Positions 10,016-64,000 of a DNA stretch of 64,000 nt are shown here, in pieces. Below the pieces are notes generated by a model that was not told where the DNA came from, did not search any database, and worked only from the letters and a program-made list of their open reading frames with translations. Position 1 is the first letter of the stretch; each line of letters opens with the position of its first letter. Made by a program: the position numbers and the translations under genes. The stretch covers positions 1 through 64,000 of IMG/VR virus record IMGVR_UViG_3300031853_000008. The stretch is one strand, 5' to 3'. The DNA is from a virus (taxonomy: Duplodnaviria > Heunggongvirae > Uroviricota > Caudoviricetes).

Positions 10016-11062
10016 TCAGAATTCCATAATAAATAAATCATCTGCATATTTGCTGAATTTGACCTTGCTTCTCTTATATCTCTTAAAATCGTCAAGAGTA
10101 ACAAATGCCTTGTCCGGCACCCCCATCCTACGACGCATCCACTTCCCTAGCAGGGCATTTGATTCTGCCGTCTGAATGCCTTTATTGTTTTGTTGGGCAA
10201 CTCTCATATACATCATCCCCATATCCGGGGTGAAAGCTTTAAATAGTTTACAGTTCTTATCTGATTCATGCATTCTTCCAGGGAAGAATCCATCTTTTCT
10301 ATCTTTACTATTATATGGAATATAAGCTTCATCACGATTTCTATTATATTTTTGCGACCTAAACCCCCAGTTGGGGCCAGATACTTCTCCTACCTTGCCG
10401 CTACTTTCAAGCCACGATACTTCGATGACATCTATTGGCGTTCTCTTCTTTAATTCTTCATAAGTAATATTCTCTAGTTTCCCCAACTCAAGTTCTTCGG
10501 CTGAGATGACCTTATTTGAGAATTTAATTTTGCTCAGTAAGTCTTTATCGAAACAATCAATTGTGTCTTCTAATAATGAGTCGTAATATTCTGATACGTC
10601 TTTAGCCGGGCAGTCTGTCATCACTTCTCGCCTATTTTGAAATGCATAGATGCTGTAATTTGCCGATCCAACAAACGCCTTTACAGGCTCATTCCCACGT
10701 AGCCACACATATGTTTTTGAATGGACATTTGCATTCCTATAGACATATCGTAAATTAATGTGGAGATTATTCGGTTTGATACTGTTCAGCTGATTAAGTG
10801 TCTTAATGATATTTGTGTGTTTATTTGCGTTAAGTCCGCTCCCTTTATACATACCTAATATGACATCGACATAGATATGACGATTGTATTTACCCTTGCG
10901 CCCCTGTTCCCCTTGTAGCTGAAGAATATGGGTGTTAATCATATCACAATCCGTGAAGCCTGTAACGATTTCAAGATGATCACAGTTATCTCCATCAATG
11001 ATTGCCGGGTCATACAATATCTGCTGCTCAAAGTCATGTGTCAAAAACATAAAAGCCCTCAC
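10016..11062 (-). CDS. PLD-family (HKD-like) nuclease, putative restriction endonuclease partner of the adjacent C5-MTase
   Basis: Two HxK...GSxN-like segments (RHIYVDV..GSGLNAN and VHSKTYVW..GSANYS). 4-nt overlap with the MTase gene. Confidence 0.35.
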   Translation of the reverse strand: MRAFMFLTHDFEQQILYDPAIIDGDNCDHLEIVTGFTDCDMINTHILQLQGEQGRKGKYNRHIYVDVILGMYKGSGLNANKHTNIIKTLNQLNSIKPNNLHINLRYVYRNANVHSKTYVWLRGNEPVKAFVGSANYSIYAFQNRREVMTDCPAKDVSEYYDSLLEDTIDCFDKDLLSKIKFSNKVISAEELELGKLENITYEELKKRTPIDVIEVSWLESSGKVGEVSGPNWGFRSQKYNRNRDEAYIPYNSKDRKDGFFPGRMHESDKNCKLFKAFTPDMGMMYMRVAQQNNKGIQTAESNALLGKWMRRRMGVPDKAFVTLDDFKRYKRSKVKFSKYADDLFIMEF

Positions 11063-12108
11063 TCTGATAAGTTAGGTTCTACAAAGGGATAATAGATTCC
11101 CGCAAAGCTATTTAATACCGCCGTTGTAACTATATTGCTTAATCTACAGGGGACCGCCATTCCTATCTGTCTGCGGACACTTGAATATTTTCCAACAAAC
11201 TCATAGTCATCTGGGAAGGTTTGGATTCTTGCCCTTTCCCTGTTGGTTAGTTCTCTGTCCGTCCAGTGGTAGCCGAACGTCCCGCCCCCACCTGAAGCAG
11301 TTATTGTATAGCTCGGTTTGTTGGGATCTAGCTTCCTGTATATCTGAGAAATTTTTGTTCTTGTTTTGATTCTAAGTTCTTCGGGCATCCGTTTCTCGGC
11401 TTGCCACACATTCTCACTAGGTTCTATGTAAGACAACCGCCTAACCACCTTATCACTCAATACTTTTATCTCATTATTTGGGGCATCCGCGGGAATACTA
11501 GATAATGCTGTTCTAGCAGAGATATCTCTCTTGTATTGGATAGGGGATGGCACCTTGAAATCCACATTTATATCATCTCTTACGCCTACTATTATAACTC
11601 TGTGGCGGGTCTGCGGGACCCCATACTCTTCTGCTTTGTATAGGTTTGTTGTGAGTTTGTATCCCGACTCACGAAGATCATTCAAGATGATTTGAAAATC
11701 ATTTCCTCCCGCCGACCTTATGCCGGATACATTTTCAGCTATGAACCAATCTGGCTGATAGATTCTGAGGGCTTCTACTCCATACCAGTAAAGCTGCCCG
11801 AATTTTTCGTTTGCGAGTCCTTTATGCTCCCCCACATTCGAAAAGCTATTGCATGGAAACCCATACGCAAAAGCATCTATTTTGCCAAGCGAAGATATGT
11901 CTAGGTTTCTGACATCTCCACAGATAACACTCTCTCTGTTATCAGGGCAAATGTTGTTCCTATAGGTTTCGCAAGTATCTGAGTCGTAATCATTTGCCCA
12001 AGCATGAGAGATTCGAAGGCTTCCGTCATCGCTCTGAGCATGTAACGCACCGTATGCAAGCCCACCCGGGCCGCAGTATAGTTCCCCTAGTTTATATACT
12101 TTTCCCAT
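11059..12108 (-). CDS. DNA (cytosine-5)-methyltransferase
   Basis: Motif I YCGPGG, motif IV GFPCNSFS, motif VI ENV. Confidence 0.75.
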   Translation of the reverse strand: MGKVYKLGELYCGPGGLAYGALHAQSDDGSLRISHAWANDYDSDTCETYRNNICPDNRESVICGDVRNLDISSLGKIDAFAYGFPCNSFSNVGEHKGLANEKFGQLYWYGVEALRIYQPDWFIAENVSGIRSAGGNDFQIILNDLRESGYKLTTNLYKAEEYGVPQTRHRVIIVGVRDDINVDFKVPSPIQYKRDISARTALSSIPADAPNNEIKVLSDKVVRRLSYIEPSENVWQAEKRMPEELRIKTRTKISQIYRKLDPNKPSYTITASGGGGTFGYHWTDRELTNRERARIQTFPDDYEFVGKYSSVRRQIGMAVPCRLSNIVTTAVLNSFAGIYYPFVEPNLSE

Positions 12109-12754: not shown

Positions 12755-13717
12755 TTACTCACAGTGCTTAACTCTTTGTTCCGTTTCTTGTTGTTTCCCG
12801 GCATTAAATGCGGTTTTATAATCCCCCGTTAAGTAGCCTGTCACTCTACGAAGTCTCCGAATATTCGTACTTCCACAAACAGGACATGCGTCACCGATTT
12901 CATCTGTGTATCCACAATTCATGCACATATCATTTGGAAGATTAATTGCAAAATATGGAATATCATGATCCATAGCATAATTTACAATTTCCTCCATTGC
13001 ATCAATGTTATGTTTGGCTGTAGATTTCAGTTCTACATATGTAATGCATCCAGCATTTGAATATCCAGTAAGTTGTGATTCAATGTCTATCTTCTCGAAA
13101 GGATTCATATCTTCCCAAACACTGCAATGAATCGAATTCGTGAAATATTCACGGTCAGATACATCTTTAATCACGCCATACTTATCTCTGAATTTTTCAA
13201 GAGCAGTGTGGCACAGATTCTCTGCGGGCGTGTAATAAACTCCAAAATTCAATTTATATTGCTGCTTGAATTCTTTGCATCTCTTACTGAACAACTCTTC
13301 GATCCTCTTGGCAAGATCCATCCCAGTAGGAGTTGTTTGGTCACACCCAATCAAGATTCTAAGAGTTTCTGCAAGTCCAAGTTGCCCAAGAGCAAGAGTC
13401 CCATGTTTCAATGCAGATTGAATTCCCTCTTCGGGATGATATCCATACATCGTTCCGTTCTCATACATAAACTTTGCGGAGTCAGGTGACTGGGAACAAA
13501 TCCAGTTGTATCTTTCAATCAGCATATCTTTTCCTTCATGAATTTTCTTATCTAGAATTTCCATGAAATTCTCTACAATATCCCCATCCTTCTCTTTCGC
13601 TTCCATAGCGAGTGTTGGAAGAATGATTGTTACAGGGCAGATGTTGCCTCGCCCATCTTTCAACTGAGGGTTGACCCCAGGTTCAGCATTAATGTCATAT
13701 CCATTGTACGTCCTACA
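12755..13717 (-). CDS. nrdD: anaerobic ribonucleoside-triphosphate reductase NrdD, exon 2
   Basis: Carries the C-terminal glycyl radical motif RRVTGYL and a CxxC zinc site. Joins exon 1 as STMG|CRTYNG. Confidence 0.7.
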   Translation of the reverse strand, partial: CRTYNGYDINAEPGVNPQLKDGRGNICPVTIILPTLAMEAKEKDGDIVENFMEILDKKIHEGKDMLIERYNWICSQSPDSAKFMYENGTMYGYHPEEGIQSALKHGTLALGQLGLAETLRILIGCDQTTPTGMDLAKRIEELFSKRCKEFKQQYKLNFGVYYTPAENLCHTALEKFRDKYGVIKDVSDREYFTNSIHCSVWEDMNPFEKIDIESQLTGYSNAGCITYVELKSTAKHNIDAMEEIVNYAMDHDIPYFAINLPNDMCMNCGYTDEIGDACPVCGSTNIRRLRRVTGYLTGDYKTAFNAGKQQETEQRVKHCE

Positions 13718-14465
13718 CATTTTATCTTGTGTCGCCACAGGCACTGACTATATCTTCTACCTTCCAGTAGCCTTCCGCTTCGGGGCGGTGTCCATCTCCG
13801 CCCCTACTCCCTTACATTCATCAGGGATAGTCGATACACTTTACATATACTCAAAGTTGTAATTATAGTGATTAGTCTTTTTGTCACCCTTTAATATAGA
13901 AGTAATTGTTTTCCTGTTTAATCCAAGTTGATTCGCGCATTCTCTGATGCTAGAGAATTCTTTTATTTCATTTGTATCTTTTGAAGTTGCCCTAATTGGG
14001 CATTTTCTATGCTATGGGTACAATCCCATGTCGTAAGCTTCTTGCGTATTGTATGCGTTAGTACACCATTCCAAATTTTCAATTGAATTATTTAATTTAT
14101 TCCCATCTTTATGATTTATCATTGGCAGAACATCAGGATTCGGAATAAATGTTTCTGCTATTAATCGATGCAATCGTATGTATTTTTTCTTTTTATTTAT
14201 CCGAAAACTTGTCATGTAATAGCCTAGGGAATCAATCCACCTACTTAACTTATGGAAACTTCCGTTCTTTAGCTTTTTATATGCATACTAGCTATCAACA
14301 TAAATATTAGGATATTTAGTTTCTTTCATTGTGGTCTCCTTTTCCACAACATCTGAGTATATGTCTTAGCACGGTCTCATCTTATTTCAAAGACCTAACC
14401 GTTAGCCCTTTCGGACACCCTTGGACAAGGTTCAAAAGGTTTTAGATGAGCTGTAGTTTACGCTT
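13718..14465 (-). other. group I intron in nrdD carrying an HNH homing endonuclease ORF
   Basis: Exon 1 ends in U and the intron ends in G. 3' core has R-like CGACTAT, a GGGGCGG..CCGCCCC hairpin (P8-like) and S-like GAAGATATAGTC. Splicing restores the conserved NrdD sequence. Confidence 0.6.
13841..14215 (-). CDS. HNH homing endonuclease (intron-encoded) with one in-frame TAG at 14012..14014
   Basis: HRLIAETFIPNP..NHKDGNKLNN HNH motif. After the TAG the same frame continues into the conserved NUMOD-like C-terminus (IKEFSSIRECANQLGLNRKTI) and ends at TAA. Confidence 0.6.
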
Positions 14466-15695
14466 ACCCATCGTTGATACATAAGTTCTGGGGTCATTCC
14501 TGTCATACCCCGCATTAACACTCCAATCTACATTACAATAGTTTGGATATAACCGCTTTGCCGTTGATTTAAGTGCAAGCCTATAAAGATCATAGTTCGG
14601 ATCTCCCGGCTTGCGATTTACCCCTTTCATACACTGAAAAATCCCGCATGGAAAAATAGGAGTCCGATGAAGAGCGCCGATTCCTTCAATAGAAACATCA
14701 AGAAGGGCTTTCGTTACCATTCTCCCTTCTGGCAAGGTGCATGTTCCGTAATTTACAGATGTAAATGGTAATTGGTTTCCAGATCTACTTTGAAGGGTAT
14801 TTAAATTATGGTACATCCCTTCAACCGCCTGATATGTTTCCTTTCGCGTCATATCCATAGCGTATTTATACGCTTTGTCATGGCTTCGATAAAAAGCATC
14901 ATCTATTCTTTTATCAATATCAAAGAATGCGTCTTCTAATCGAACTCTTTGTTCAATATATTGTATTCCATCTTTGAAATGCTTCCAGAACGATTTACGA
15001 ACATATGGCACCATAGTCCAATCAATATGCGATGCCGAGCAACCCCCGAATTCTTGCAAACTTTGGAGCTGGAATAGAACTGCAACAAGCTGAAAAGCAG
15101 TGTTAATGCTTTGAGCTGGCCTTACATCAGTTTGTCTAGTGTTAAATCCTTTTGCGAGGAGATCATCAAAAGGAATAGTCAAACAATTGTGCATTCCCAC
15201 CGCGTAAGCATCAAGATCGTGTATATAAATCTCATTATTCAGATGATTATTACGAGACATCTCACTCATACAATAATCAAGAGCATACTGTTTCATTAAC
15301 GTAGAACTTGCCTCGCCTCTTCTCCCCCCAAAACTCTTTTCATCAACATTCGCATTTTGATTCTGCACATTGCTTGCATCAATCTTTTCTGCGATTGTTC
15401 TCATCATTCGACTGTTTTTTTCTCTGGCAAGCCTTCTGTTTTCTCTATAAATAACAAATGCTTTTGCTACATCTTTACGGTTGCTTGACATCAACTTATT
15501 TTCAATAATGTCTTGAATATCTTCAACAGACATATCTTTTCCGCTATCGGAAATTAGCTTGGATATTTCAGTGGCCTTATCCCTCGTATACTTCGTCGTT
15601 TCCCCATCAACTTCTGTAAAAGCCTTGATAATCGCGTCCTTCACTTTTTGTCGATCAAACTCAACTACTCTTCCGTCACGTTTCTTTACTTTCAT
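14466..15695 (-). CDS. nrdD: anaerobic ribonucleoside-triphosphate reductase NrdD, exon 1
   Basis: Starts MKVKKRDGRVVEFD (ATP-cone). RBS AGGAAG. Confidence 0.7.
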
Positions 15696-25616: not shown

Positions 25617-25816
25617 TAGTCATCCTCAATAATTATTTCTATGTCACACAAGTTTGATAAATCTTTGTCTTTTCTGTGATCAATCACTTCATAATATGGA
25701 GATATATTTTCATCTTCCCACATAGAGTATAATCTATCGAATAGCTGTGGAATGGAATTAGTGGTAATATACTTGAATTTATTTCCGCTGCTTTCTTTTC
25801 GCACAAGAATCGTCAT
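25613..25816 (-). CDS. hypothetical protein (67 aa)
   Basis: ORF. Confidence 0.4.
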   Translation of the reverse strand: MTILVRKESSGNKFKYITTNSIPQLFDRLYSMWEDENISPYYEVIDHRKDKDLSNLCDIEIIIEDDY

Positions 25817-26043
25817 GTTTCATCATCCTTCATTGAATAGTCACTCCATTTTACGGAAGATGTATTTTCATTCCCCGCATCAGGAGTTGTTGTTTTCAAA
25901 ATACTGATAATCTCACCCTTCATATCTTCGCCACCGATAAAGTATGCCAGATTTAGAATTTCCCGCTCTCTTGCCGCCCTGTCGTTCTTCTGTGCGATTC
26001 CAGCAAGTTTAATAGCTATCTTCAGTTTCTTGAATTTTGTCAT
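25813..26043 (-). CDS. hypothetical protein (76 aa)
   Basis: ORF. Confidence 0.4.
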   Translation of the reverse strand: MTKFKKLKIAIKLAGIAQKNDRAAREREILNLAYFIGGEDMKGEIISILKTTTPDAGNENTSSVKWSDYSMKDDET

Positions 26044-26061
26044 GAGATTCTCCTTATATAG

Positions 26062-26133
26062 TCACCCGGTGGGGATTCGAACCCCAGTCTTGAGGGTTAG
26101 GGCCTCTCGTCTTGACCACTCGACTACCGGGCG
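26062..26133 (-). tRNA. amber suppressor tRNA, anticodon CUA (reads UAG); charged amino acid unknown
   Basis: 72-nt cloverleaf: acceptor CGCCCGG/CCGGGTG, U8A9, D arm GTCG..GAC, T arm TGGGG-TTCGAAT-CCCCA, discriminator A. Anticodon arm GAGG/CCTC with loop CCCTAAC puts CTA at positions 34-36. Position 33 is C rather than U. Confidence 0.6.
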
Positions 26134-26202
26134 CTCTGTCTTTCCAGAGTGTCAAGTTGATTTGTATTTCCAGTTACTGGTTACATATTTGCGTCACAAA
26201 AA

Positions 26203-26463
26203 TTAGAAACGAAGGAAGTCTGTCAGAAGGGCTGGAATAATGCTTAAACTGCTATATCCACCATAATCTGCTTCGTACTTTTCCTTCAGCTTCAAATACT
26301 CGCGTTCCGCATCTTGAACTCTGTCATATGCCTTACGGAGTTCTTCTGCTCGTTCCTTCTTCTTGCTCTTGATTGTGAGAGCATCGGCTTCAGCCACTTT
26401 CGCTTCGTCTTCTGTTCCGTAAAACTTCTGCGTTACATCGCTATAGTATCTCAATGGAATCAC
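26203..26463 (-). CDS. hypothetical protein (86 aa; non-ATG start)
   Basis: ORF with an AGGGG RBS and an ATT/alternative start. Lies between a conserved leader element and the suppressor tRNA. Confidence 0.35.
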   Translation of the reverse strand: MIPLRYYSDVTQKFYGTEDEAKVAEADALTIKSKKKERAEELRKAYDRVQDAEREYLKLKEKYEADYGGYSSLSIIPALLTDFLRF

Positions 26464-26480
26464 CCCTTTCTTTTAGATTT

Positions 26481-26545
26481 CAAGACCCGAAAATGGTTGC
26501 AGATTAACAGTCTGTTCATATTTGTGTTGCTGTTAGGGTCTTAAT
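26481..26545 (-). promoter_or_regulatory. conserved leader element copy L3 (AAGACCC-AACAGCAA..CAGACT..GCAACCATTT..GGGTCTTG)
   Basis: About 65 nt that aligns with L2 (28841..28908) and partly with L1 (58879..58974). Its ends are complementary (AAGACCC / GGGTCTT). Confidence 0.4.
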
Positions 26546-26639
26546 AATTTTTATTATTATTTACAAGGCGCTCATTACTAGATCGGTTACAAGTCGATTG
26601 TAAAGTTGTTTGCTGTATGCGCCTTAATTTCAAGACTCG

Positions 26640-26712
26640 GCTTTGACTTTGAGCTGGGGCCAGATTAGAACTGGCAATCTCTCCGGGGCCACCGAAGCGC
26701 TTTAACCTTTGA
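26640..26712 (-). ncRNA. tRNA-like fragment (D-arm-like GGCTCAAAGGTTAAAGC and T-arm-like CCAG-TTCTAAT-CTGG hairpins) just downstream of rsr
   Basis: GC-rich structured segment. No canonical acceptor pairing could be found. Confidence 0.25.
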
Positions 26713-26750
26713 GCCACCCGGCTAATCATTGCTGTACGGAGTCTTATAGC

Positions 26751-28274
26751 TTACACAATATCCTTTACGGCATCTTCTATTGGCTTATATCTATCTGTAT
26801 TCAACTCATTAAGAAGAGCTTCATACGGATCAATCTTTGCCGTCATAAACATCTTCAGCAGATTCACAGAGAACCCAGAACAGAGAACCATGCCGAGATC
26901 ATTCTCCTGCATCGGAATCGTCTTATCCATGTTAAGCGACAGATTCCAGAAAACAATCTTTGGCAGCTTATAGCCATGACTCTGATATTCGTCGCTGATT
27001 TCTTCGAATAGAGTCTTGTTATATCCAAAACTTGTCCAATGGCTTCTTCCATCCCACTGCATATCACTGCAAATCACAATCATCTTCGGCATATCGTCCT
27101 GCGTCATATGATTCTCGATTGCGGTGTTCAGAATCAGTTTCATTGTCTTATAGATGTCTGTATTGGAACATTCATCTTCTGCATAAGTCTTAGCAACTTT
27201 ATCTGCCAGGGTCTTACAATTGCGGAGATCGATAAACTTCGGATTGGCGGAAAATGTAATGAATCTCCCCCGCCAAGCCTTAGAGTTATGATCCGCCATG
27301 TAAATAGCGAGTGCTGTGGCAACATCAATAGGCCTGTAGCTTCCACAGTTAGATTCCATTGACCCGCTACCATCTCTGACGACAAGAGCATCGGAGAGCA
27401 TAATATTCTTCTGGCTCTTCCATAATTCTTCCAGTACTGGATCTTCTTTCACATTATCGCGCTCCCAGTAACAACGACCACCAATATACTGCTTGACAAT
27501 CTCATGCGGCTGAAGAGCCTTTGCGTTAATCTTTGTATCGCCTTTAACAAGAGAGTCAATATATTCCTGTCTTCTTGCTTGATCGTGACGTGCGAACGCA
27601 TCTTTGTAATTGAGATTTGCCTTGGACGGAACCTTTGCGTAATCAATATCGCTCCAGTTCCCGCAAGACATCTTCTGCTCCACTACATCAAGGTACGTTC
27701 TCAGCCCTGTAAGAAGTTTTCTGTACTGGCGGGGCTGAATCCCCCACTCATCCATCGTCTTTCTCGCAAGTCTTCTTGTGTTCTTTGACGAAGTGTTTTC
27801 TGATGGAAGCCATTTGCTCAAAAGGGATACAGACTTTCCTTCTTTTGCATTTCTCACATCTTCAAGAGCCTGGTTGAGCATGAGCCTTGCCGTATCTTTC
27901 CAGACTGGAGTATTCTCTAGTGTATAAAGGCTATCCCATCTGTTATATTCTGAGACGAACTTAATCAGCTTTTTCACAACGTCTGGCTTCTGATCCGCCA
28001 GCCACGCAAGACAAGCCCGGAAGACTTTACGCTCTCCCACCCCCTCACGGATATCTCCAACATAGAAGAGATACTTTACCGCAATAAGTGGGTTCTCGAA
28101 ATAAACCTTTGCAAATTCATCCTTGATATCACTCTCGTCCATACTCCTCATAGAAGAAAGCGCGAAGTTGAAATCAAGAAGGTTCTTTCCTGATGTTTTG
28201 TATGCAACGGCACCGTTCGTGGTAAGCGTTTTCTCGTTGTTAAGTTCTTTCTTCATTCCATCATAAAAATTCAT
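26751..28274 (-). CDS. rsr: Ro60/Rsr-like ribonucleoprotein (TROVE + von Willebrand A domains)
   Basis: N-terminal TTNGAVAYKTSGKNLLDFNF TROVE-like region. vWA MIDAS VVRDGSGSM. Start MNFYDG with AAAGGA RBS. Confidence 0.6.
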   Translation of the reverse strand: MNFYDGMKKELNNEKTLTTNGAVAYKTSGKNLLDFNFALSSMRSMDESDIKDEFAKVYFENPLIAVKYLFYVGDIREGVGERKVFRACLAWLADQKPDVVKKLIKFVSEYNRWDSLYTLENTPVWKDTARLMLNQALEDVRNAKEGKSVSLLSKWLPSENTSSKNTRRLARKTMDEWGIQPRQYRKLLTGLRTYLDVVEQKMSCGNWSDIDYAKVPSKANLNYKDAFARHDQARRQEYIDSLVKGDTKINAKALQPHEIVKQYIGGRCYWERDNVKEDPVLEELWKSQKNIMLSDALVVRDGSGSMESNCGSYRPIDVATALAIYMADHNSKAWRGRFITFSANPKFIDLRNCKTLADKVAKTYAEDECSNTDIYKTMKLILNTAIENHMTQDDMPKMIVICSDMQWDGRSHWTSFGYNKTLFEEISDEYQSHGYKLPKIVFWNLSLNMDKTIPMQENDLGMVLCSGFSVNLLKMFMTAKIDPYEALLNELNTDRYKPIEDAVKDIV

Positions 28275-28297
28275 AATCAGTATCCTTTCATTGTAAG

Positions 28298-28410
28298 GAG
28301 GGCAGTGTGGGTTCGAACCACAAACATCGCCTTTCAAGAGGAAAATGTTTTGCTGTTAGCACCTATACAAGATGCGTATTTTCGTGCTCTACCATTGAGC
28401 TACTGCCCTC
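28298..28410 (-). ncRNA. Y-RNA-like tRNA mimic
   Basis: Perfect acceptor stem with G-1 (gAGGGCAG/CTGCCCT), U8A9, D arm GCTC-AATGGTA-GAGC, T arm TGTGG-TTCGAAC-CCACA. In place of an anticodon arm there is about 63 nt of extra helices. Lies 23 nt upstream of rsr. Confidence 0.5.
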
Positions 28411-28505
28411 ATAGAAACAAGACCCTTAACCCATTGATTGCCGCTAGAAGGAGATCCATTTATCATTTTCATGTGATTTGCTGCGTGGGTCTTAATATGT
28501 TACTG

Positions 28506-28811
28506 TTATTTATTTAGTTTTTCTTCTTCTTTCTTTTTGATTTCCGCTTGCTCGTCCAACCAGTTCTGAAGCTTTCTGAATACGGAAATCTCTTTCTGTA
28601 AAGGAGTCTTACCGTTATCAATCCGTTTATCGGAATTTCTGGCAAGCTCATTTATTTTCTTGTACTGGTATCCCTTTCCATTCTCAATCCTAATTCTGAA
28701 ATGGGAGATTCTTTTTTTATCTCTCTCCTGCTTAATCGCCTTATTCTTTTCACGAGTTCCAGCCGCTTCGTACTTCTTGCACCAGTCTTTATTTCTTCCA
28801 ATCTTAGACAT
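28506..28811 (-). CDS. hypothetical basic protein (101 aa)
   Basis: Lys/Arg-rich ORF, first gene after leader L2. Confidence 0.45.
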   Translation of the reverse strand: MSKIGRNKDWCKKYEAAGTREKNKAIKQERDKKRISHFRIRIENGKGYQYKKINELARNSDKRIDNGKTPLQKEISVFRKLQNWLDEQAEIKKKEEEKLNK

Positions 28812-28840
28812 ACATAAGTCCTTTCTGTAATATCATAATC

Positions 28841-28908
28841 GCAAGACCCTAATTAAATGGTTGCGGATTTCAAGTCTGCTCATTATTGGTTTTGCTGTTC
28901 GGGTCTTT
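28841..28908 (-). promoter_or_regulatory. conserved leader element copy L2
   Basis: AAAGACCCGAACAGCAAAACCAATAATGAGCAGACTTGAAATCCGCAACCATTTAATTAGGGTCTTGC. A 16-mer (AGACCCGAACAGCAAA) is identical to L1. Confidence 0.4.
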
Positions 28909-28917
28909 CTATTGTTG

Positions 28918-28946
28918 ATATTACCACATTAATTTACGCATGTCAA
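28918..28946 (-). promoter_or_regulatory. sigma70-type promoter TTGACA-N17-TAATAT upstream of L2
   Basis: Sequence match. Confidence 0.35.
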
Positions 28947-31346
28947 CCCTCTTCGGATAAAATTCTTTTTATATTTTTCAAGGGTTCAATGAGAGTATTC
29001 AGTGCTATGCCGTTTCCCCACAACTTATATTCAGCTGAGTCGGAGTGTGGCACGTCGGCACACCAGTCATCTGGAAATCCCTGCAACCTAGCACATTCTG
29101 TCGGGGTCAATCTTCTCACAATATATTCATCTTCCATTACAAAATTCCTTCCATTATTTGTCATTACATAATGTTGTCCGTGACAATGGCTCGACCCCCC
29201 CCCACAAATACAGGGTGCCAACCCATCATCGCTACATATCTGCCTTGATTCGTGTTCCCACTGGTTCAATATCATTTCCGTTCCTCTTTACGAGAACATA
29301 ACATTCCGACCCACCCCATCTGCAATCGCCGCTATATAAAGCCCCACAGATTCCATCGGGCAAGAATATTGCCTTACTTTCTACGTCCCCTCTGTTTAGA
29401 TTTATTATCTTCAACATCGCTGTTCTCTACTCTATAGGCTACTGCGTGTACCTCTGTAATATTTAAGGTGTACATTACTTTGGATTCTTTATACCCTATG
29501 CCCTGATGGGATGGGCGGCAGCCATTTCCCTCAATTGCTACAGTCTCATCAGATATCATTTTCATATCATTTCCTTTGAAGCACCATCATCCCGCCTTGA
29601 TTACACGCAGGATTTCCACCGTTAAGATCAAGGGTCCTCGATGTTTCAATCTTCTGAATCCCGCTATAAGGGTTACTCGATTTCATGCAGTTGGAGCAAT
29701 ATGAAGATATATTATAAACAAGAAATTTTTGACTCTTGCTCTTTTCTAATACTATCGGAAGGTGTTGGTGCGTCTGCGCCCTCAATGTGCCTACTACATC
29801 TTCATATACTGTCATCTGACTCCCGCCTTGGTCATCTAACACAATCATTTTTCTTCCTCGTTATCAGTACCTGATCTTGAGAAACCCCAAGTGTGGCGGA
29901 AATATCTGTCTGAATCAAAAGCCCTTTCCCGGCAGTCCCCGTCTTTCCGTTCCACATGGTATATGTATTTGCCCCCCCTCTTATCTTAAGAGTATAGGCA
30001 TCTGCTCCCTAAATATATGGCATATCATTTTTCCTTCTTTAATAGTATAGCTGGCGGATCTTTATAATCATTCCAATGAAGAGTATACGCAACATTAATG
30101 TTCCGCCATCTGCACATCTGCCCACCCTGGTCGGTCATCCAGTACTTTTTATTACTGTCTTTTTTTATAAGCACGAGTGGAGTATTGTTCCCCCCAGTGC
30201 CATATCGAGCGGATACTGTGCATGCGATATCATATGGCCCAGTAACCCTAGAATCTCCTGGGTGGCTTTCGTAATATTGTGGCTTCATGATGATTCCTTT
30301 TTATTAACAATTACTATAGGAGTCCTATTCTCAGAATTATCAAATACATTTAATGTATCTGACACTTTTGTTTCTTCCCAAAGCTGTGGCTATCCTTTGT
30401 AATGGGAATGCGCTTTCTTATGAAAAGCGTAAACCACAGACATCTGATTGTCCCCGGGGTTACTCCTTAATGTTCCGCTCACTTTTTCATAGTAGTGGCC
30501 ACCACACCTTGACATAACCCCAGGTTCGAATGACATAGGTTCTGTTAATTTTTTTTTACATCATCCTCTGTTGATAATCCGGCTTGTTTCATTAATGCGT
30601 TCTTCAAGACTTCTGGAAGTTCCTTCCCACGACTTTCTGATCTCCTCAGTATTCCAAGACACGCTTTCGGGCTTAAATAATACTTCGGCTGCTCTTCTTC
30701 CATCAAGATCTGCGACAAGGTACACTCTCCGCCTTCTTTGGGCGGTACCGCCTCCGACGTGGCAAGCGTCCAAGGTACGCCAAGCGATTTGCCAGTCATC
30801 TCCGTCCAGAACTCCTGCGTAGTGCCATTTCCCTTCTGGAGGGAGAGGTACATTGGCACATCTCTCTTTAATTTGCGCCACTGTTTCGAGTACTGTTCTA
30901 AAGTCTGATCCTTTGTTGCTTGAGAATATCCCGGGGACATTTTCAAAACACCAGAATCTCGGATATCTTCCATTTGTTACCTCCCTCATTTCTTTTGCAA
31001 TTCGAACTGATTCATAAAATAGTCCACTCTGCTTTCCGGCCAGCCCTTCCCTATTTCCTGCAACGGAAATATTTGTGCATGGGCTTGAATTCGTAAACAC
31101 ATCAACTGGCGGGATTTTTGCCCCATCAATCTTTGTTACATCTCCAAGCTGAATACACTCAGGAAATCGTTTTGCTTCAAGTGCTACAGGGAACGGTTCA
31201 ATCTCTGATTCCCATAATGGCTTTATCCCGACCATCTTCCCAGCCAACTCCCATGTTCCAGCCCCTGAGAAAAGATTGCCTAATGTAATTTCCTTTTTGC
31301 TCATATTCTTACCTCCTGAACCATACATTATCATATTAATATCCAT
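28943..31346 (-). pseudogene. fragmented multi-TRD DNA (cytosine-5)-methyltransferase, split over at least 6 frames
   Basis: ORF 30561..31346 has motifs I (LFSGAGT), IV (SPCTNISVAG), VI (ENVPG) and VIII (QRRRRVYLVA). Downstream fragments carry repeated TRD-like T..R..G.GGN segments and a terminal IX/X (RLTPTECARLQGFPDDW, WGNGIA) in frames 0/1/2, with at least one TAG. Confidence 0.45.
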
Positions 31347-31816: not shown

Positions 31817-32767
31817 TCAAAAAAATACTCCGTATTTTGTCAGATATCTTTTCACTAATCCTATAGGTGCATACTGATTGTCAACCTCCTTTATATGCTC
31901 AGACATAATAAATTCCCTTACATTAGTGATTCCATATTTTTGCATTAGATTTCTCATCATATCAATGCGCCCGGACTCCCATATGTCTTTCGCCAGGATT
32001 CCTTTATAAAGCCCCGCATTATGTGAAACCCTTTTCACCCTTTTTCGGATAGATACGTGCATATGCTGAATATCGCTGTTCTTCGAATTCACAAAAGGCT
32101 TAATTATTCGTTCAGGGTCACTGTTGATAAGTGTCGCTTCCCTTGCACCAGCCCCGCCTATGCCTGTATAGACAGTCTCTTCAGCAGCTTCAAACGCCAC
32201 TGTAACCAACTTTTTTGTAGCGGCTATGGTACGTCCTTCCAACTTAAAATAATAAGAATCTCCATCCTTATAGATATCACTTGTCCTTGCATTTATCAGA
32301 TCTTTCGTCTGCTCTCCCATAAAACCTTCATAGAGGGCTAATATGATAAACTTGTCACTTGGGTTCTTCTGTTCATCCACCAAAGCATATAGTTTATCTT
32401 TCGGGATAAATTTCGATTGGATGGCATTCGGATTTAGAAATCCAGACAGATCATCCATAGATATCTCGTTAAAATGATTCTGGTTATCTTTGACTAAAGT
32501 ATTTGACAGACACCAATCTGTATATATCTTTAGTGCAGAATTCATAACGACCAAGCTATCATAAGTTGGGGTATTACAATACAAATAAAAATCCTGTATA
32601 TTCGCAACACTCCAATCACATACGTCACGCTGTTCTTTTTCTTCTAGCGGACGAGTCTTCCTAAATAGGTTTTCCAAGAAATATCCGGGGAGAGTCACTA
32701 TATTTTTTCTGTATTGGATGAACTGGCTCTTTCTGTCTTCATTATAGTAATCTGACATTGTCTTCAC
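31817..32767 (-). CDS. hypothetical protein (316 aa)
   Basis: Long ORF. No recognised motifs. Confidence 0.45.
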   Translation of the reverse strand: MKTMSDYYNEDRKSQFIQYRKNIVTLPGYFLENLFRKTRPLEEKEQRDVCDWSVANIQDFYLYCNTPTYDSLVVMNSALKIYTDWCLSNTLVKDNQNHFNEISMDDLSGFLNPNAIQSKFIPKDKLYALVDEQKNPSDKFIILALYEGFMGEQTKDLINARTSDIYKDGDSYYFKLEGRTIAATKKLVTVAFEAAEETVYTGIGGAGAREATLINSDPERIIKPFVNSKNSDIQHMHVSIRKRVKRVSHNAGLYKGILAKDIWESGRIDMMRNLMQKYGITNVREFIMSEHIKEVDNQYAPIGLVKRYLTKYGVFF

Positions 32768-34602: not shown

Positions 34603-35565
34603 TTAAAACAGATCGTTCATAATCTTTGCTGCATTTGTCCGCTTCGTTTTATCGACTTGAGCATATCTCTTAGTACTGGCAATATTGTTATGTCCAAGCA
34701 CTTGAGCCACAAGATAGATATCTCCTGTCTTCTGGTAAAGATTTGTTCCACATGTGCTTCTCATTTTATGTGGGGTAATTTTTTTCCCAATACACTTAGT
34801 TGATTCTTTAAGCATATTTGTAACAGTAAACGTAGTAATCCTCTTCTTTGTTACTGGCGTTAAAAACAATGCGTCTGTATCCTCTTTTTCCATCTTATCA
34901 CGAACTTCAAGCCATTTTCTTATATAATTTATGGTTTTCCTTCCAAGATATACAGTTCTTTCTTTATTTCCTTTTTCGACTACCGTAATTGACCCATGCT
35001 CAAGGTCAAGATCCGCAACATTTATCTCGACAATTGACTCAACTCTCAGCCCAGTAGTGCAGCCAAGACTGAAGATAGCCAAATTTCTAGCAACAAGATT
35101 CCGTCTTGAATTCTGTGCGATAACACTCTCAACTTGACGCACTTCATCTGGAGTCATGAAAACTACTTCCTTCTTATTATTTGGATGAGGAGTGTCGGCA
35201 TCATCACATGGGTTTTCCGTGATGCATCTCATTTTCTTCTTGAGAAATGTATAAAAACTTTTTACCGCATAGAACTTCTGATGGGCGGACCCATTTCCGC
35301 TTCCGTTATCTTTTAAGTAACTAATATAATCATCAATGTCACTCGGAAGAATATCTTTATATGTATCAATAGAATTGATATCATATCCGTTCTCTTCAAG
35401 ATATTCTAGATAATGCCATACAAAAAACAGATAGCGGTACTTAGTGCTTTTCGTTTTGCTATTGAAAGATGAATTAGCGTATCTGATTAGCACATCTGGC
35501 TTGCCATCGAGAAGATTGTTTATCATCTCATCAAATTTTGCATCATGTTCTTCTCTTCCTGTCAT
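34603..35565 (-). CDS. int: tyrosine recombinase/integrase
   Basis: R..HxxR..Y catalytic signature (TGLRVES, HKMRST, LGHNNIASTKRYAQV). Confidence 0.75.
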   Translation of the reverse strand: MTGREEHDAKFDEMINNLLDGKPDVLIRYANSSFNSKTKSTKYRYLFFVWHYLEYLEENGYDINSIDTYKDILPSDIDDYISYLKDNGSGNGSAHQKFYAVKSFYTFLKKKMRCITENPCDDADTPHPNNKKEVVFMTPDEVRQVESVIAQNSRRNLVARNLAIFSLGCTTGLRVESIVEINVADLDLEHGSITVVEKGNKERTVYLGRKTINYIRKWLEVRDKMEKEDTDALFLTPVTKKRITTFTVTNMLKESTKCIGKKITPHKMRSTCGTNLYQKTGDIYLVAQVLGHNNIASTKRYAQVDKTKRTNAAKIMNDLF

Positions 35566-58878: not shown

Positions 58879-58974
58879 AAGACCCGAACAGCAAATTTAC
58901 AGGATAAATTATGATGACATTGAACGGATATGAACTTGGTTCGTCCCCGTTCTTTCCCTTTTTTGGGTCTTGCG
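58879..58974 (+). promoter_or_regulatory. conserved leader element copy L1 upstream of the late operon
   Basis: TTAAGACCCGAACAGCAAA ... TTTTTTGGGTCTTGCG. The termini match L2 and L3 and are mutually complementary. Confidence 0.4.
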
Positions 58975-58997
58975 CCATGATTAAGGAGGGAAGCTAT

Positions 58998-60052
58998 ATG
59001 GCTTTTTTGAAAAAAGTCCTGCCATAGCAGGAAATGAAAAGGCTTACCCTCAAGCCCCTAAGAGAACAATATACTGCTTTGGGGTAGGCTTATAACAAAA
59101 TTATGAATTATGAACTTCCTTATTGTGTCAAATGTGGGACATTTGGAAGTGCTACTCTCTTCTATCAAGATAGCAGATTTGCGAATGGGTATTTCCCTAT
59201 TTGCAAAAAATGTATTATGAAAATGGTATAGAACAGATAGAAGGATGATGATGAACCACACGAAACGAAGGAATCCGTTGCTAAAGTATTGAAAATGATG
59301 GATCTTCCGTTCTTGGAAGACCTTTATGATTCTTGTGTAAAGGCTATTGAGGACGGAACTGAAAAGCGAGGGTCTAAATCTTCGTTTATTAATTATGTGT
59401 CCGCTATCCGTTCTCTCCCACAGTATCATCGTTTAACGTGGAAAGATTCTGATTATATTTCCCAAGAGAAGGAAATTGAGAACGACGCTGATAATGAGGA
59501 TATTCTTGAAAAAGCGAGAGAACATTTTGGAACAACTTATACTAATCAAGATTTGAAATTCCTTTAGACTCAATATGAAGACTGGACTGCCAGATATGCC
59601 TGTGAAAGTAAAGCACAGTAGATTTTGTTCCAGAGGGTATGCTTTATCCAATTAGCACTGGACAAGGCTCAAAAATCTGGGAAAGAAACGAAAGATCTTG
59701 ATAAACAGCTTCAGGATGTGTTGACATCGCTTCAGATTAAACCTAATCAGAGTAACTCTAATGCTCTTACGGAAGCAAAGACGTTTAGCCAGCTTATTGA
59801 GAAGTGGGAAGCTTAGAAACCTCTCCCTGAAATATAGGATGATTTTAAGGATGTTGATCATGTTGGGAGATATATTGATGTGTTCTTTAAAGGACATCTA
59901 TCCAAAATGATGGGGCTTAAGAATGCGTTTTCTTCTATGTATGATAAATTCATGAAAAAATATACTGTTAAGAAGCCGGAATATGATGAGGATACCGACT
60001 CTGAAGAATTGTTTGATAAAATATTTGGCAATCCTGTGGAGAATAGGTCATG
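58998..60052 (+). CDS. late protein with N-terminal zinc ribbon (candidate small terminase subunit); 8 in-frame TAG codons
   Basis: ATG with TTAAGGAGGG RBS. A single frame runs 58998 to 60052. Every interruption is TAG and the final stop is TGA. Confidence 0.45.
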
Positions 60053-60115
60053 AGTGACGCTAAGAAATCTGTTAAATAGATAGAGAAAACCAAATAGCGT
60101 AAAATAATGTAGACG

Positions 60116-61813
60116 GTGGCTTGGAGAGCAAGCTACTATCGTGAAAATCCTCATCGATTCGTTTCTGAAGTATTATTCCCAGATGGAACTTTTAAGTTGA
60201 AATTGTTTCAAAAGATTCTTCTTTGGGCAATGATGCACTACAACTTTATTATGTACTTGGCGGCGCGCGGCCAGGGGAAAACGATGATAACTGCGTTGTT
60301 TTGTGTCGTGAGATGTATCTTATATCCGGGGACAAAGATAATTGTAGTAAGCGGTACGTTGAAACAAGCGAATGAATTGCTGTTAAAGATACAAGATGAA
60401 TTTATGCCGAAATCACCATTCCTATGTAATGAAATATAGTCTTGTAAAATTGGGCAGAATGACGCATCAATTTATTTTCGAGGAAATTCATGGATTAAAA
60501 CTCGCACAAGCACTTAGAACTCTCGTTCCGCAAGAGCAAATATTCTTATAGCGGATGAGTTTCGCATGATAGATTAGAAGATATTGAACACAGTTCTTCG
60601 AAAGTTTCTGACAAGCCCTCGTGAACCTGGATATTTGAATAACCCAGAATATACTCATTTAAAGGAACGCAATAAGGAAATTTATATGAGTTCTGCGTGG
60701 TTTAAGTCATCTTGGGCATATGAAAAGGCTATTGGATATACTAAGAATTTTTTCGATGATACAAAGAAATATTTTATCTGCGGGCTTCCATATCAGTTAT
60801 CTATTATGGAGGGCTTGCTTATGAAAGAACAAGTGCAGGATGAGATGAGCTAGCCGGATTGGAATGATTTATTGCAGTCGATGTAGATGGAATGCACCTG
60901 GATAGGTGATGTTGGAGATAATTTATTTCATTTTGATGATTTCAATAATAGACGGGTATTGAAGAGTTCTTTTCTTCCATTGAAATATTATAATGATAAT
61001 AGAAAAGTGCCATAGCCTCATTCAAAAGGGAAAAGGGTATTATCTCTTGATGTAGCTTTAATGAAATCATCAAAGTCTAAAAAAAATGATGCCTCAGCAT
61101 TATTCATTAACGATCTTACACCATCTACTAATACGAGTTATCATTCAAATATCGTTTATGCTGATACATTCGAGGGGTTAACAACTGACTAGCTTGGCTT
61201 AATTGTGATGAGATATTTTTATAAATATAAATGTACTGATTTAGTTATAGATACCAACGGTATCGGTTTAGGTGTCTATGACTTTTTATGTCGTGATCAA
61301 TATGACCCATCGACTGGGGAAACCTATCAAGCTATGACTTGTGCTAATGATCCAGATATGGCTGAGAGATGTCGTGTATAGGGGGCTAACAAGGTTATTT
61401 GGAGTGTAAAAGCAACCGCTTCATTTAACAATGATATTACTATTTTGCTCCGTAATGCTATATTAAATGGACGGATTAGCTTTCTTATATCTTAGGATGA
61501 TGCGGATGAGCCACTCAAAGATAAGCTTAAAGGATATGCAAAGCTGACCCCAACGGAACAAGCATTGTTAAAGAAACCTTACGCTCAGACAACTATGACA
61601 GAGTATGAACTCATAAAACTCAACCACTAGGTAAAGAATGGCAATATTAAAGTTTATTAGAGTTCTGGAATGCGCAAGGATCGCTACAGTTCATTATCGT
61701 ATAATTATTGGTGTGCGACTCAGCTTGAACTTAAGCTACGACCTAAAGAGTCACACGACAAACTTATCAGTTACTTTCCGATAAGGAAAGCAAGAGTTTA
61801 TAAATCATTTTAA
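60116..61813 (+). CDS. terL: terminase large subunit; 11 in-frame TAG codons
   Basis: GTG start. Walker A AARGQGKT, Walker B ILIADEF, nuclease-domain motif VIDTNGIGLGVYD, C-terminal KDRYSSL. One frame throughout, with interrupting stops only TAG (60437, 60515, 60575, 60851, 60884, 61013, 61184, 61379, 61493, 61628, 61658). Terminates at TAA. Confidence 0.75.
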
Positions 61814-61825
61814 GGAGGTGCATGA

Positions 61826-63376
61826 ATGCCACAAAATAGTGATAAGGTGTCAACTGCACCTACTAAGAAACAGCCTACTTCTGCGGAACTTCGCAAATGG
61901 TATGCGAATTATTCAAAGAAACAATAGAATTTTGATTCTATGAAAAATGCTTTGAAACGGCTTACTGATATTACGAAAAGTAGAAAAGAAAGAACTATTA
62001 ATACATTCTCAAAAGAGGATCTCAGAACTTATCTGAGAAATATAAGTTCCAGTGAAAAGCAGTTAAGAAATCTTTCGAGATATCTGTACTACCGTTCTCA
62101 TAGTTATTATAGAATCATTAACTATTATGCCAATATGTTTGACCTAAAAGCAAGGTCGGTTATTCCTACATATGATTTCACAAAAAATAAACAGGATGCG
62201 AAGAAGGTCACAAAACAGTTCTATACGACTTTGACTTATCTAGATCAAATGAACCTTCAGTATGAGTTCCTTAAAATATATCTCACTTGTTATAGGTAGG
62301 ATGTATTCTATGGTTGCCTGTACTGGGATGATACCGACTTCTTTATTCTCCCGTTGGACCCGGATTTTTGTAAAATTTCTGGCGTTTATGGGACAGGAGA
62401 CTTTTCATTCGCTTTCGACTTCTCCTATTTCAGAAATAGACAGGACGTTCTCGAATACTGGGGTGAGCCATTCCAATCTATGTATAACACATATGAGAAT
62501 GATACCACCAACAATAGGTGGCAGGACTTCCCGGAAGAATACTCTGTTTGCTTGAAAGCAAGGGCATAGGATTGGCAGACCGTAGTGCCCCCGTTCTCAG
62601 GGCTTTTTAATGAGATTATCAATCTTGAGGATCTGAAAGATATTCAGGCGGTGGCAGATGAGTCGCAGATTTACAAGCTTCTCTGGTTCGAACTTAAAAC
62701 CATCACAGGGTCGAAAGATGTTAATGATTGGGCGGTTGATCCAGACCTTGCTTTGGATTATTACGATAAACTTCAGAATGAGATTCCTGAGTGGGCTGAT
62801 GTTGCGATGGTTCCTGGGGAACTCAAGTCTATCGAGTTCAATCAAGACCAGGCGGATGATACAAACAAGGTATAGAAAGCTACTGAAAGTGTATTCAATA
62901 CTTCCGGCGGAGCGCAGATTCTTAATGCTGCTTCTATCTCTGGGACAACAGCTTTTACTGCCGCGATTGCGTCTGATACTGAATTTGCCGTTTCTCTCCT
63001 GTTGCCACAGACTTAGGCTTGGGTGAATCGTATGCTTTCGTATAAGATGAATAACCCCGCAAAGGTGAAATTCTTTGAGATAAGCATCTATACGAGAGAT
63101 AAGTTAAGAGATGCTCTTCTCAAGTCGAGTCAGTTCGGGCTTCCAAATAAACTTGCCATTAATACCCTGTTTGGATATTCCGAGAAAGATACAATGGCGA
63201 TGAATTTCCTTGAAGAGAATTGCTTGCAAGTCAGCACTAAATTTACTCCACTCCAGTCTTCCTATACAAGGAGTGCGGATGTTGACACAGATTCTATTAC
63301 AGGGGGAAGACCATCTAGCACATAGATAACAGATGACGGTGAAGCAAGCAAAGATAAGAGGGATAATGCGAAATGA
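61826..63376 (+). CDS. portal/connector-like late protein; 6 in-frame TAG codons
   Basis: AAGGAGG RBS. Four listed ORFs (61940, 62354, 62585, 63023) plus flanks are all in frame 2, joined by TAG only. Terminates at TGA. Confidence 0.5.
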
Positions 63377-63574: not shown

Positions 63575-64000
63575 GTGAAGAGGATTCTTACTCTCTAGGA
63601 TTTAGTGGCTCTTTGTAGCTAGAATAAATTTTCTACATTTGATTCTGAAAAAGCTGGATTTCAGCTTTGTGTTCATGTCCCCGCGGTTTTCGAAAATACA
63701 GAATCTGACGAGCATACTCTGTATGGATATGTCAAACTTATGCATACGGGAAAAAACCGAAATGGTTCTAATCTAACAGAGGAGGCGGCAAAAAACTGCC
63801 TTTCTTCTATTGCATATAAGCCACTTCTTGCAGATTTTTGTGAAATTGATGGCGTAGAGGACTTTACTTCTCACGCTTTTCATGAAGATTAGGATGGAAA
63901 TATCGTATATGATGAGCGTCAAGTCGGAGCATTTACTGCTGACCCACCGGAATTAAAGGAAGATGGCGAGCATCCAGATCGCAAATATGTTTTTGCGAAA
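63575..64000 (+). CDS. late protein, 3' partial, at least 3 in-frame TAG codons
   Basis: GTG start with AGGAGA RBS. The frame continues to the window end through TAG codons only. Confidence 0.4.

Follow-up and report, generated by a model that had tools for sequence, protein, structure and literature searches.

According to Borges et al. (10.1101/2021.08.26.457843), stop codon reassignment in phages is observed in crAss-like, Lak, Garnet/Topaz and similar clades, and only as TAG to glutamine (Gln) or TGA to tryptophan (Trp). Phages of the phAss-1 group encode suppressor tRNAs with a CUA anticodon, tRNA-Sup(CUA), with two to three such tRNAs per genome (PMC10607447). The Lak study noted occasional alignment of TAG with glutamate (Glu) and assigned Gln, and the 180 phage tRNA-Sup genes of Kienbeck et al. 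have the predicted isotypes Gln, Trp, Ile and Tyr, with no Glu. Here we analyze a 64,000-nucleotide stretch of a virus record in IMG/VR (IMGVR_UViG_3300031853_000008, positions 1 to 64,000; hereafter the window), which contains a gene for a tRNA with a CUA anticodon at 26062-26133 on the minus strand. Our results suggest that this phage probably reads UAG as glutamate by means of a tRNA-Glu-derived CUA suppressor, within a clade whose other recoded members read Gln. The device itself, a phage-encoded CUA suppressor, is known; the Glu meaning appears to be previously unreported for a prokaryotic virus. We found no report of TAG=Glu in a phage in the literature searched, where recoding with a CUA suppressor was always TAG=Gln.

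The window belongs to a 112,828-bp contig of a large SPbeta-like phage, of which 72 kb were read; locus L001 carries the continuation of the window (L-numbers designate retrieved phage or relative loci). None of 53 called genes ends in TAG (28 use TAA and 25 TGA), and in-frame TAG codons are concentrated in the late region: 14 late genes (58.9-71.4 kb, window plus continuation) contain 56 TAG in 4002 codons, against 8 in 6139 for the replication block and 3 in 2435 for the pre-late block. This amounts to a density of 1.4% in late genes versus 0.12-0.13% elsewhere (11 in 8574 early and middle codons), or about 11-fold, and TAG makes up 18% of TAG+GAG+GAA in the late genes. TAG-containing genes reach full length only by read-through; full-length homologs of the large terminase, TerL, measure 580-590 amino acids. 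A preliminary description of the window had seen TAG as a sense codon in five genes. We recovered this signal in TerL (14 TAG), the portal gene (6), an HNH gene (2) and a Cas4-like gene (1), but in the ClpP-like gene TAG occurs only in a longer frame, upstream of the called start.

Several of these traits are shared with phages recoded under code 15 (TAG=Gln): a phage-encoded CUA suppressor, the absence of TAG as a terminator, and the concentration of TAG in late structural genes while early genes stay nearly compatible with the standard code, a pattern reported by Borges et al. In both cases no phage aminoacyl-tRNA synthetase is found; Pfam annotations of the 72 kb include neither such an enzyme nor a release factor. 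The window phage differs from code-15 phages in that its TAG codons align with Glu and its tRNA is of Glu type.

The first of these differences emerged from aligning the TAG positions of TerL with homologs, a comparison proposed in the preliminary description. When TerL was translated with X at each TAG and aligned with 120 database homologs (64-68% identity), 12 of its 14 TAG sites fell on Glu columns, five of them occupied by Glu in 116-119 of the 120 sequences; the remaining two fell on Lys/Arg columns. The probability of hitting at least 12 Glu-consensus columns by chance is 8e-13, and BLOSUM log-odds are 17.7 nats for Glu, 7.5 for Gln and 7.2 for Asp. No TAG lies on any of the at least eight invariant Gln columns, which the phage writes CAA or CAG. 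A public TerL protein with 98% identity (P0001) shows Q at all 14 sites, where the DNA reads TAG, because the gene caller applied code 15.

We retrieved the loci of 84 relatives and translated them directly from DNA, so as not to depend on Qs in database proteins, whose origin is uncertain. The 14 genes provide 60 TAG sites for alignment with up to 84 relatives; Glu is the majority residue at 32 of these, Asp at 6, Gln at 5 and Thr at 4. Per-site log-odds at these sites (Glu.657, Asp.306, Gln.293) match the profile of true GAA/GAG sites taken as a control (.616,.282 and.262); at true Gln sites they are.266 for Glu and.541 for Gln. Summed over sites, Glu is ahead of Gln by 21.9 nats and of Asp by 21.1. 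An empirical test that takes, from these genes, the spectrum of majority residues for each true amino acid yields log-likelihoods of -116.5 for Glu, -148.1 for Gln and -151.5 for Asp, so that Glu leads Gln by 22-32 nats across likelihood tests. The share of Gln-majority sites is 8% for TAG, 5% for true Glu codons and 45% for true Gln codons; judged from these alignments, a pure Glu reading would account for the TAG sites with no admixture of Gln. From the codon evidence, TAG very probably means Glu in this phage, that is, glutamate and not glutamine.

Eight of the 84 clade TerL genes are themselves TAG-recoded (L002, L003, L005, L426, L428, L429, L431 and L463), with 5-16 TAG each. These relatives have the TerL family (64-70% identity) and the late-gene order in common with the window phage, but in all eight the TerL TAGs lie mostly on Gln-consensus columns, including exactly those Gln columns that the window phage writes CAA/CAG. 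In the 84-TerL alignment, Glu columns carry 11 of the 14 TAGs of the window phage, which is alone in this placement. L428, one of these TAG=Gln relatives, and one of the window-phage assemblies stem from a single JGI sample. Another, L002 (ena:ERZ27291663:k119_221847, TerL at 10001-11794), has ten TAG on Gln columns and three on Glu columns, two of the latter at sites used by the window phage (TerL residues 21 and 156); it could represent a mixed or transitional use of TAG. In a neighbour-joining TerL tree the window phage forms a lone long branch, about 68-70% identical to standard-code and recoded relatives, and its code may have arisen independently or by a switch from Gln to Glu. As a separate observation, the TAG=Gln relative L005 encodes at 6458-6549 a CUA tRNA of 92 nt that resembles neither the window tRNA nor ordinary tRNA-Gln; it has A1-U72/G73 and a long extra arm or insertion.

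The element at 26062-26133 is almost certainly a genuine gene for an amber-suppressor tRNA. Among the four tRNA genes that ARAGORN finds in the window is one at 26061..26133 (-), its anticodon CTA being placed at position 34. The Rfam family RF00005 matches 26062..26133 (-) from end to end; its score of 56.9 bits exceeds the gathering score of 29, the E-value over the window is 1.3e-9, and the posterior probabilities are all '*'. Both agree with the 72-nt cloverleaf, CUA at positions 34-36 and A37 that had been proposed from inspection. In RNA sense, the 5' half reads CGCCCGG UA GUCG AGUGGUCA AGAC G AGAGG CCCUAAC and the 3' half CCUCA AGAC UGGGG UUCGAAU CCCCA CCGGGUG A. The anticodon loop CCCUAAC thus corresponds to C32, C33, C34-U35-A36, A37 and C38. 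Two oddities pointed out earlier are borne out: position 33 is indeed C, and A27·A43 is the sole pair that Infernal flags as non-canonical. To these we add the pairs G13·A22 and G2·U71, a variable loop of 4 nt without residue 47, and the lack of an encoded CCA. An alternative fold with a sense anticodon and U33 had been raised as a possible objection; no other register of the tRNA yields a 7-nt loop with U33. Folded by itself, the tRNA has a minimum free energy structure other than a cloverleaf, which is usual for tRNAs and was not counted as evidence.

Across four independent assemblies, obtained from different samples (ENA ERZ27256883, ENA ERZ27291693, Logan SRR9036512 and JGI 3300031867), the tRNA sequence is 100% identical, so that C33 is not an assembly error; these assemblies represent strains 99.9% identical and therefore provide no covariation evidence. 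C33 is found in 1-4% of tRNAs from phage contigs. At least six further, distinct CUA tRNAs also have C33 (L031, L033, L211, L240 and two in L267); they were retrieved by searches that required C33 and hence show recurrence, not frequency. Two of them have Gln-like bodies, with the exact anticodon arm GGAGG-CCCUAAC-CCUC in common. Phage tRNA-Glu(CUC) genes with the C33 loop CCCUCAA also exist, and the window loop CCCUAAC is one substitution (C36A) away. One may speculate that C33 tunes suppression efficiency or helps to evade host anticodon nucleases, the latter idea going back to work on phage tRNAs with anticodon-loop changes. The 'Pyl' label attached by ARAGORN reflects the CUA anticodon alone. 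Typical tRNA-Pyl has a 6-bp anticodon stem, a 3-nt variable loop and a small D loop without GG, an architecture ruled out here by a standard 5-bp anticodon stem, an 8-nt D loop with G18G19 and the 4-nt variable loop; Pfam scans of the 72 kb revealed no PylS-like gene.

Raw similarity is a poor guide to the isotype of this tRNA. BLASTN against 50,697 phage records returned only T-arm matches, to Asp, Met and Gln tRNAs, and the nearest neighbours after masking of the anticodon do not discriminate between isotypes (Asp 52/69, a CUA tRNA 51, Glu 51), the closest single tRNA being a phage tRNA-Asp whose D arm is the same. Nor is the isotype settled by this arm on its own, since its exact 16-mer is found in Leu, Glu and Asp tRNAs. 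A profile hidden Markov model margin of 12 bits was rejected, its Glu training set being biased by our own pattern search, and structure-aware covariance models were built because the margin fell with an unbiased set. We also searched IMG/VR with a skeleton pattern, GTCNAGNGGTNAAGAC-N20-AC-NNGGGTTCGAATCCC, which specifies the D arm, 4-nt variable loop and T arm and leaves the anticodon free. It retrieved 94 tRNAs, 92 with anticodon TTC (Glu) and 2 with TCC, and shows that no other isotype uses this D-arm/variable-loop/T-arm architecture, in a test that is partly circular, as the pattern was designed from overlap with a Bacillus tRNA-Glu. Searching for the same skeleton with a CUA anticodon gave nothing in IMG/VR and two JGI contigs with a different Glu-like suppressor.

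The covariance models for Glu, Gln and Asp were built from phage tRNAs at loci not selected for resemblance, with anticodons masked as N and the cloverleaf supplied. The window tRNA scores 64.1 bits with the Glu model, 49.4 with Asp and 48.3 with Gln, and a bona fide tRNA-Glu(UUC) from L379, used as a control, shows an equivalent profile with 61.7, 49.3 and 46.3, respectively. Two CUA tRNAs with a UGGGG-type acceptor were scored in the same way: L033 obtains 44.9 with Glu, 32.1 with Asp and 55.2 with Gln, and L031 obtains 35.7 with Glu and 52.9 with Gln. Isotype-specific covariance scoring, which the preliminary description had suggested, therefore ranks the Glu model best and agrees with the codon alignment; judged by its sequence, the tRNA body is Glu-type.

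In E. coli, the identity set for glutamyl-tRNA synthetase (GluRS) comprises U11-A24, a non-Watson-Crick 13·22 pair with A46, the absence of residue 47, U35, A37, G1-C72 and U2-A71. The window tRNA has U11-A24, G13·A22 with A46, no residue 47 (variable loop AGAC), U35 and A37. Its acceptor end (C1-G72, A73) had been judged not Gln-like, a view we share, as it is without U1-A72 and G73. The combination G2·U71 and A73 is the state found in the Firmicutes-type tRNA-Glu genes recovered by the skeleton search, and a phage tRNA-Glu(CUC) in L279 has the same C1-G72/G2·U71/A73 end. Firmicutes-type tRNA-Glu (GGCCCGUUGGUCAAGCGGUUAAGAC…ACGGGUCA, recovered at prophage borders) is also 72 nt long and resembles the window tRNA in its D arm (GUCNAGNGGUNAAGAC, with U11-A24 and a mismatched 13·22), its T arm (GGGUUCGAAUCCC), a 4-nt variable loop ending in AC, G2·U71, A73, C32, A37 and C38. 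The window tRNA differs from it by a CUA anticodon instead of UUC/CUC, by C33 instead of U, by C1-G72 instead of G1-C72, and by an unrelated anticodon stem with A27·A43.

Glu-type CUA tRNAs are also present in unrelated phage contigs (L145 2500-2571, L146 6677-6748, L279 1810-1885 and L379 4139-4212), with Glu versus Gln scores of 76 vs 61, 59.5 vs 48 and 55 vs 51 bits among these other CUA tRNAs. The L379 CUA tRNA has the C1-G72/G2·U71/A73 acceptor stem of the window tRNA with one compensatory pair change, and U33. The tRNA array of L146 also encodes a tmRNA. Contigs Ga0247609_10000070, JAEIGA010000262.1, IMGVR_UViG_3300021256_001812 and IMGVR_UViG_3300021431_000004 are the records that carry these additional Glu-type CUA tRNAs.

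A UAG=Glu code has eukaryotic counterparts. In ciliates, peritrichs read UAA/UAG as Glu and Oligohymenophorea sp. PL0344 reads UAA as Lys and UAG as Glu (10.1101/2022.12.16.520718). The likeness lies in the use of a tRNA-Sup(CUA) that is nearest to tRNA-Glu(CUC/UUC). Ciliate codes, however, are genome-wide, permanent and include reassignment of UAA, whereas we deal here with a virus of a presumably standard-code bacterium, which keeps UAA as a stop and uses TAG mainly in late genes. Theta ribozymes (of the HDV type; HDV, hepatitis delta virus) associated with tRNA-Sup (PMC10879173) provide another parallel, in that phage suppressor tRNAs are implicated in a code switch. The window tRNA differs from that class, in which the ribozyme sits within ±5 nt of the tRNA 3' end, in having no ribozyme (no HDV-like Rfam match at E<=1 in 26000-29000), and the next start codon lies 18 nt past its 3' end.

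We propose that the element is probably a functional amber suppressor on a tRNA-Glu scaffold, through which the phage would decode UAG as glutamate. The tRNA would be transcribed within a minus-strand replication block (leader, orf86, tRNA, orf76, SSAP, SSB, primase), excised by host RNase P and a 3' processing enzyme, provided with CCA by the host nucleotidyltransferase and charged with Glu by the host GluRS. GluRS is likely to recognize U35 and the 'augmented D helix' (U11-A24, non-Watson-Crick 13·22 with A46, no residue 47). Should the host form Gln-tRNA through the indirect pathway, its GluRS would already accept C or G at position 36. GatCAB picks tRNA-Gln by U1-A72; with C1-G72 in its place, the Glu on the suppressor would stay unamidated in such a host. 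The charged tRNA would compete with release factor 1 at UAG, so that full-length terminase, portal and capsid/tail proteins would be made only once the suppressor has accumulated, thereby gating late translation. A common bipartite leader, described below, may couple the tRNA operon with the late operon, although this step is weakly supported. That this very tRNA is the decoder, charged by host GluRS, seems to us a reasonably good bet.

Several observations weigh against this proposal. With the unbiased training set, the hidden Markov model test ranks Glu first in only four of five splits, with margins of 0.3-7.5 bits. The acceptor stem has C1-G72 and G2·U71 where the determinants for E. coli GluRS are G1-C72 and U2-A71, and C34 and A36 differ from the Glu anticodon (from CUC, only position 36 departs), which is a major GluRS determinant in E. 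coli. The homologous tRNA of L379 comes with a single testable gene, whose TAG codons lie on two Gln-, two Glu- and one Lys-type columns. About 40 kb of the 112.8-kb genome lie outside the 72 kb read, where a second suppressor, an aminoacyl-tRNA synthetase or a release factor could be encoded. Furthermore, charging, expression and the inserted residue are predictions; a GlnRS or a non-discriminating GluRS in the host is likewise presumed, the only relative in genome collections being an 'uncultured bacterium' RUG assembly. Amber suppressors derived from E. coli tRNA-Glu are largely glutaminylated, and for this reason, together with a host synthetase complement that is presumed, charging is the weakest link. 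It is the codon-level evidence that carries the Glu claim.

Among alternatives, the one that survives best accepts TAG=Glu and ascribes decoding to another suppressor, located in the other ~40 kb or provided by the host, the gene described here being auxiliary or decaying. The unread part of the genome leaves room for such a tRNA, phAss-1 phages carry more than one CUA tRNA, and the rare C33 and the mismatched 27:43 pair might be signs of decay. Yet this is the sole CUA tRNA in the 72 kb, it scores as high as a normal tRNA (the same phage's tRNA-Lys obtains 59.8 bits with Rfam), it is preserved base for base in four assemblies, its C33 recurs in other phage CUA tRNAs, and its isotype agrees with a codon meaning inferred independently; we regard a different decoder as unlikely. 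Ordinary code 15, with the tRNA charged with glutamine by a GlnRS reading CUA or by GluRS plus GatCAB, would fit the precedent of all described recoded phages and of the eight clade relatives, as well as the five Gln-majority sites out of 60; the Qs of P0001 might be cited too, but they stem from code 15 having been applied. Against it stand the near-invariant Glu columns carrying TAG while invariant TerL Gln columns carry CAA/CAG, the likelihood difference, a Gln-majority share resembling that of true Glu codons and not of true Gln codons, and a tRNA without U1-A72 and G73 that scores 16 bits lower with the Gln model, all of which make this reading very improbable. Equally hard to sustain is ambiguous Glu/Gln decoding, or another acidic residue, Asp: Asp is the second commonest aligned residue, the nearest tRNA by raw identity is a tRNA-Asp and L002 has TAG on both Gln and Glu columns, but TAG sites and true Glu codons do not differ in their shares of Asp and Gln, Glu leads Asp by 21 nats, and the tRNA has A73, not the G73 of tRNA-Asp, with the Asp model 15 bits under Glu.

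Returning to the Glu-type suppressor, its genomic context is summarized in Table 1. As described earlier, the tRNA gene lies behind orf86, with a repeated element in front of the latter. The minus strand carries, in this order, leader, orf86, tRNA, 18 nt containing AAGGAG, orf76, orf67, SSAP, SSB and primase-helicase. The AAGGAG ribosome-binding site and ATG start of orf76, 18 nt past the tRNA 3' end, indicate that the tRNA is embedded in a polycistronic block; we found no convincing sigma-70 promoter upstream of the tRNA and no terminator between the open reading frames (ORFs) and the tRNA.

Table 1. Positions of the suppressor tRNA gene, leader copies and TAG-containing late genes in the window
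Feature	Position	Strand	Remarks
orf76	25813..26043	-	
tRNA-Sup(CUA), 72 nt	26062..26133	-	ARAGORN, Rfam, 4 assemblies, covariance models
orf86	26203..26463	-	no TAG; between leader and tRNA
Leader copy (L3), AAGACCCTAACAGCAA … GGGTCTT	26482..26542	-	5' of orf86 and suppressor tRNA
Divergent leader copy, AAGACCCACGCAGCAA…GGGTCTT	28419..28493	-	directly upstream of tRNA-like gene 28298-28409
Leader copy	28843..28907	-	upstream of orf 28506-28811
Leader copy (L1)	58879..58971	+	directly upstream of late structural operon
YonG-like late gene	58911..60053	+	8 in-frame TAG
Large terminase	60050..61813	+	14 in-frame TAG, 11-12 on Glu-consensus columns
Portal protein (phrog_2739)	61826..63376	+	6 in-frame TAG
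YonD_N-like late gene, start	63740..64000	+	runs past window; 5 TAG in full gene (L001)

The leader noted in the preliminary description is real and does precede the late operon as well: it is a repeated bipartite element in four copies. A 16-mer, AAGACCCKAACAGCAA, occurs three times against 0.06 expected (26527-26542 (-), 28892-28907 (-) and 58879-58894 (+)), each copy co-oriented with downstream genes. It forms the 5' half of an AAGACCC…GGGTCTT element that is closed by GGGTCTT 40-85 nt later, and the bipartite pattern has 3+1 occurrences against 0.01 expected. A closing helix is predicted in every copy; as it is invariant, it offers no covariation. The late-operon copy folds at -27 kcal/mol (z = -2.8), while z-scores of the others are unremarkable. 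The motif is not conserved at the sequence level in relatives, and the element has no Rfam match. The repeated element links the tRNA operon to the late operon and to a tRNA-like gene. It is a candidate antitermination signal, processing site or promoter for a phage polymerase, and we may hypothesize that the tRNA and late operons are co-regulated through this shared leader.

Several other tRNA-like genes were observed. Two of them, at 28298-28409 (-) and 26651-26723 (-), flank a DUF2828/DUF7788 protein gene (26751-28274, (-)). The first (Rfam tRNA, 42 bits) has a 53-nt insertion in place of the anticodon arm; the second (38 bits; ARAGORN 'Ala GGC') has an odd T loop, UUCUAAU. This arrangement recalls Ro60-like (TROVE/vWA) genes with tRNA-like Y RNAs, a putative analogy; no sequence match was found in the PDB. 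A further tRNA at 4248-4338 (-) (Rfam, 37 bits) has a 37-nt insertion in the anticodon region and no ARAGORN anticodon, and adjoins a normal tRNA-Lys(UUU) at 4945-5018. Finally, a tRNA-like sequence at 7990-8063 (-) was matched only by our Glu covariance model (34.9 bits), with none from Rfam or ARAGORN; its acceptor stem is good, the stretch CUUUGAA resembles an anticodon loop (UUG, Gln) and the T loop is non-canonical.

The late genes match Pfam families named after Bacillus prophage SPbeta (YonJ, YonG, YonD, YonB, YomW and YomU), and TerL matches terminase PHROGs together with three 'unknown' PHROGs that resemble TerL fragments from recoded phages. The closest isolated phages are large Bacillus and Lactococcus siphoviruses, with a portal identity of only 26-32%. 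Samples and relatives point to rumen or gut metagenomes, and a TerL scan of 185,579 species genomes gave a single match, the RUG contig mentioned above. The window also contains two integrase-family genes (31817-32758 and 34603-35565), which is suggestive of a temperate phage.

Interrupted genes are found at several places in the window. The anaerobic ribonucleotide reductase gene nrdD, 12755-15695 (-), is split by the HNH endonuclease gene at 13841-14329, which contains the two TAG codons mentioned above. Two group I introns identified with Rfam, one at 53114-53356 with 76 bits and the other at 53691-54007 with 91 bits, divide a gene of about 880 amino acids at 51401-54730 (+), just upstream of an HU-like gene, into ORFs 51401-53161, 53437-53703 and 54089-54730; in relative L003 the corresponding place is occupied by an uninterrupted gene of 874 aa. 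By synteny, the divided gene would be a putative counterpart of yonO, the single-subunit RNA polymerase gene that lies just upstream of an HU-like gene in SPbeta. A C5 cytosine methyltransferase frame at 28943-30288 (-) is broken into five or six short ORFs, perhaps as a pseudogene or through interruption by elements or frameshifts. At 10016-12108 lie an intact C5 methyltransferase and an NgoFVII-type restriction enzyme.

If the Glu assignment is correct, phages are not limited to Gln or Trp as readings of a recoded stop, and its meaning can differ between related phages. It would be set by which synthetase accepts the suppressor and, in hosts with the indirect pathway, by which amidotransferase does so. 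Reassignments described so far are TAG to Gln and TGA to Trp (TGA to Gly when matching the host), which has been taken to mean that only GlnRS and TrpRS (the synthetases for Gln and Trp) can be hijacked; a TAG=Glu phage would break that rule and add GluRS. The claim is directly testable by metaproteomics, as E and Q differ by 0.984 Da. There are practical implications as well: pipelines hard-wired to code 15 would insert the wrong residue at no fewer than 60 positions here, including the 14 TerL sites, and a natural Glu-inserting amber suppressor, possibly along with the other Glu-type CUA tRNAs, would be a candidate part for genetic-code engineering. Furthermore, TAG=Gln and TAG=Glu phages with terminases about 68% identical constitute a natural comparison, which could show how the 1:72 pair, the D helix and the anticodon loop set codon meaning.

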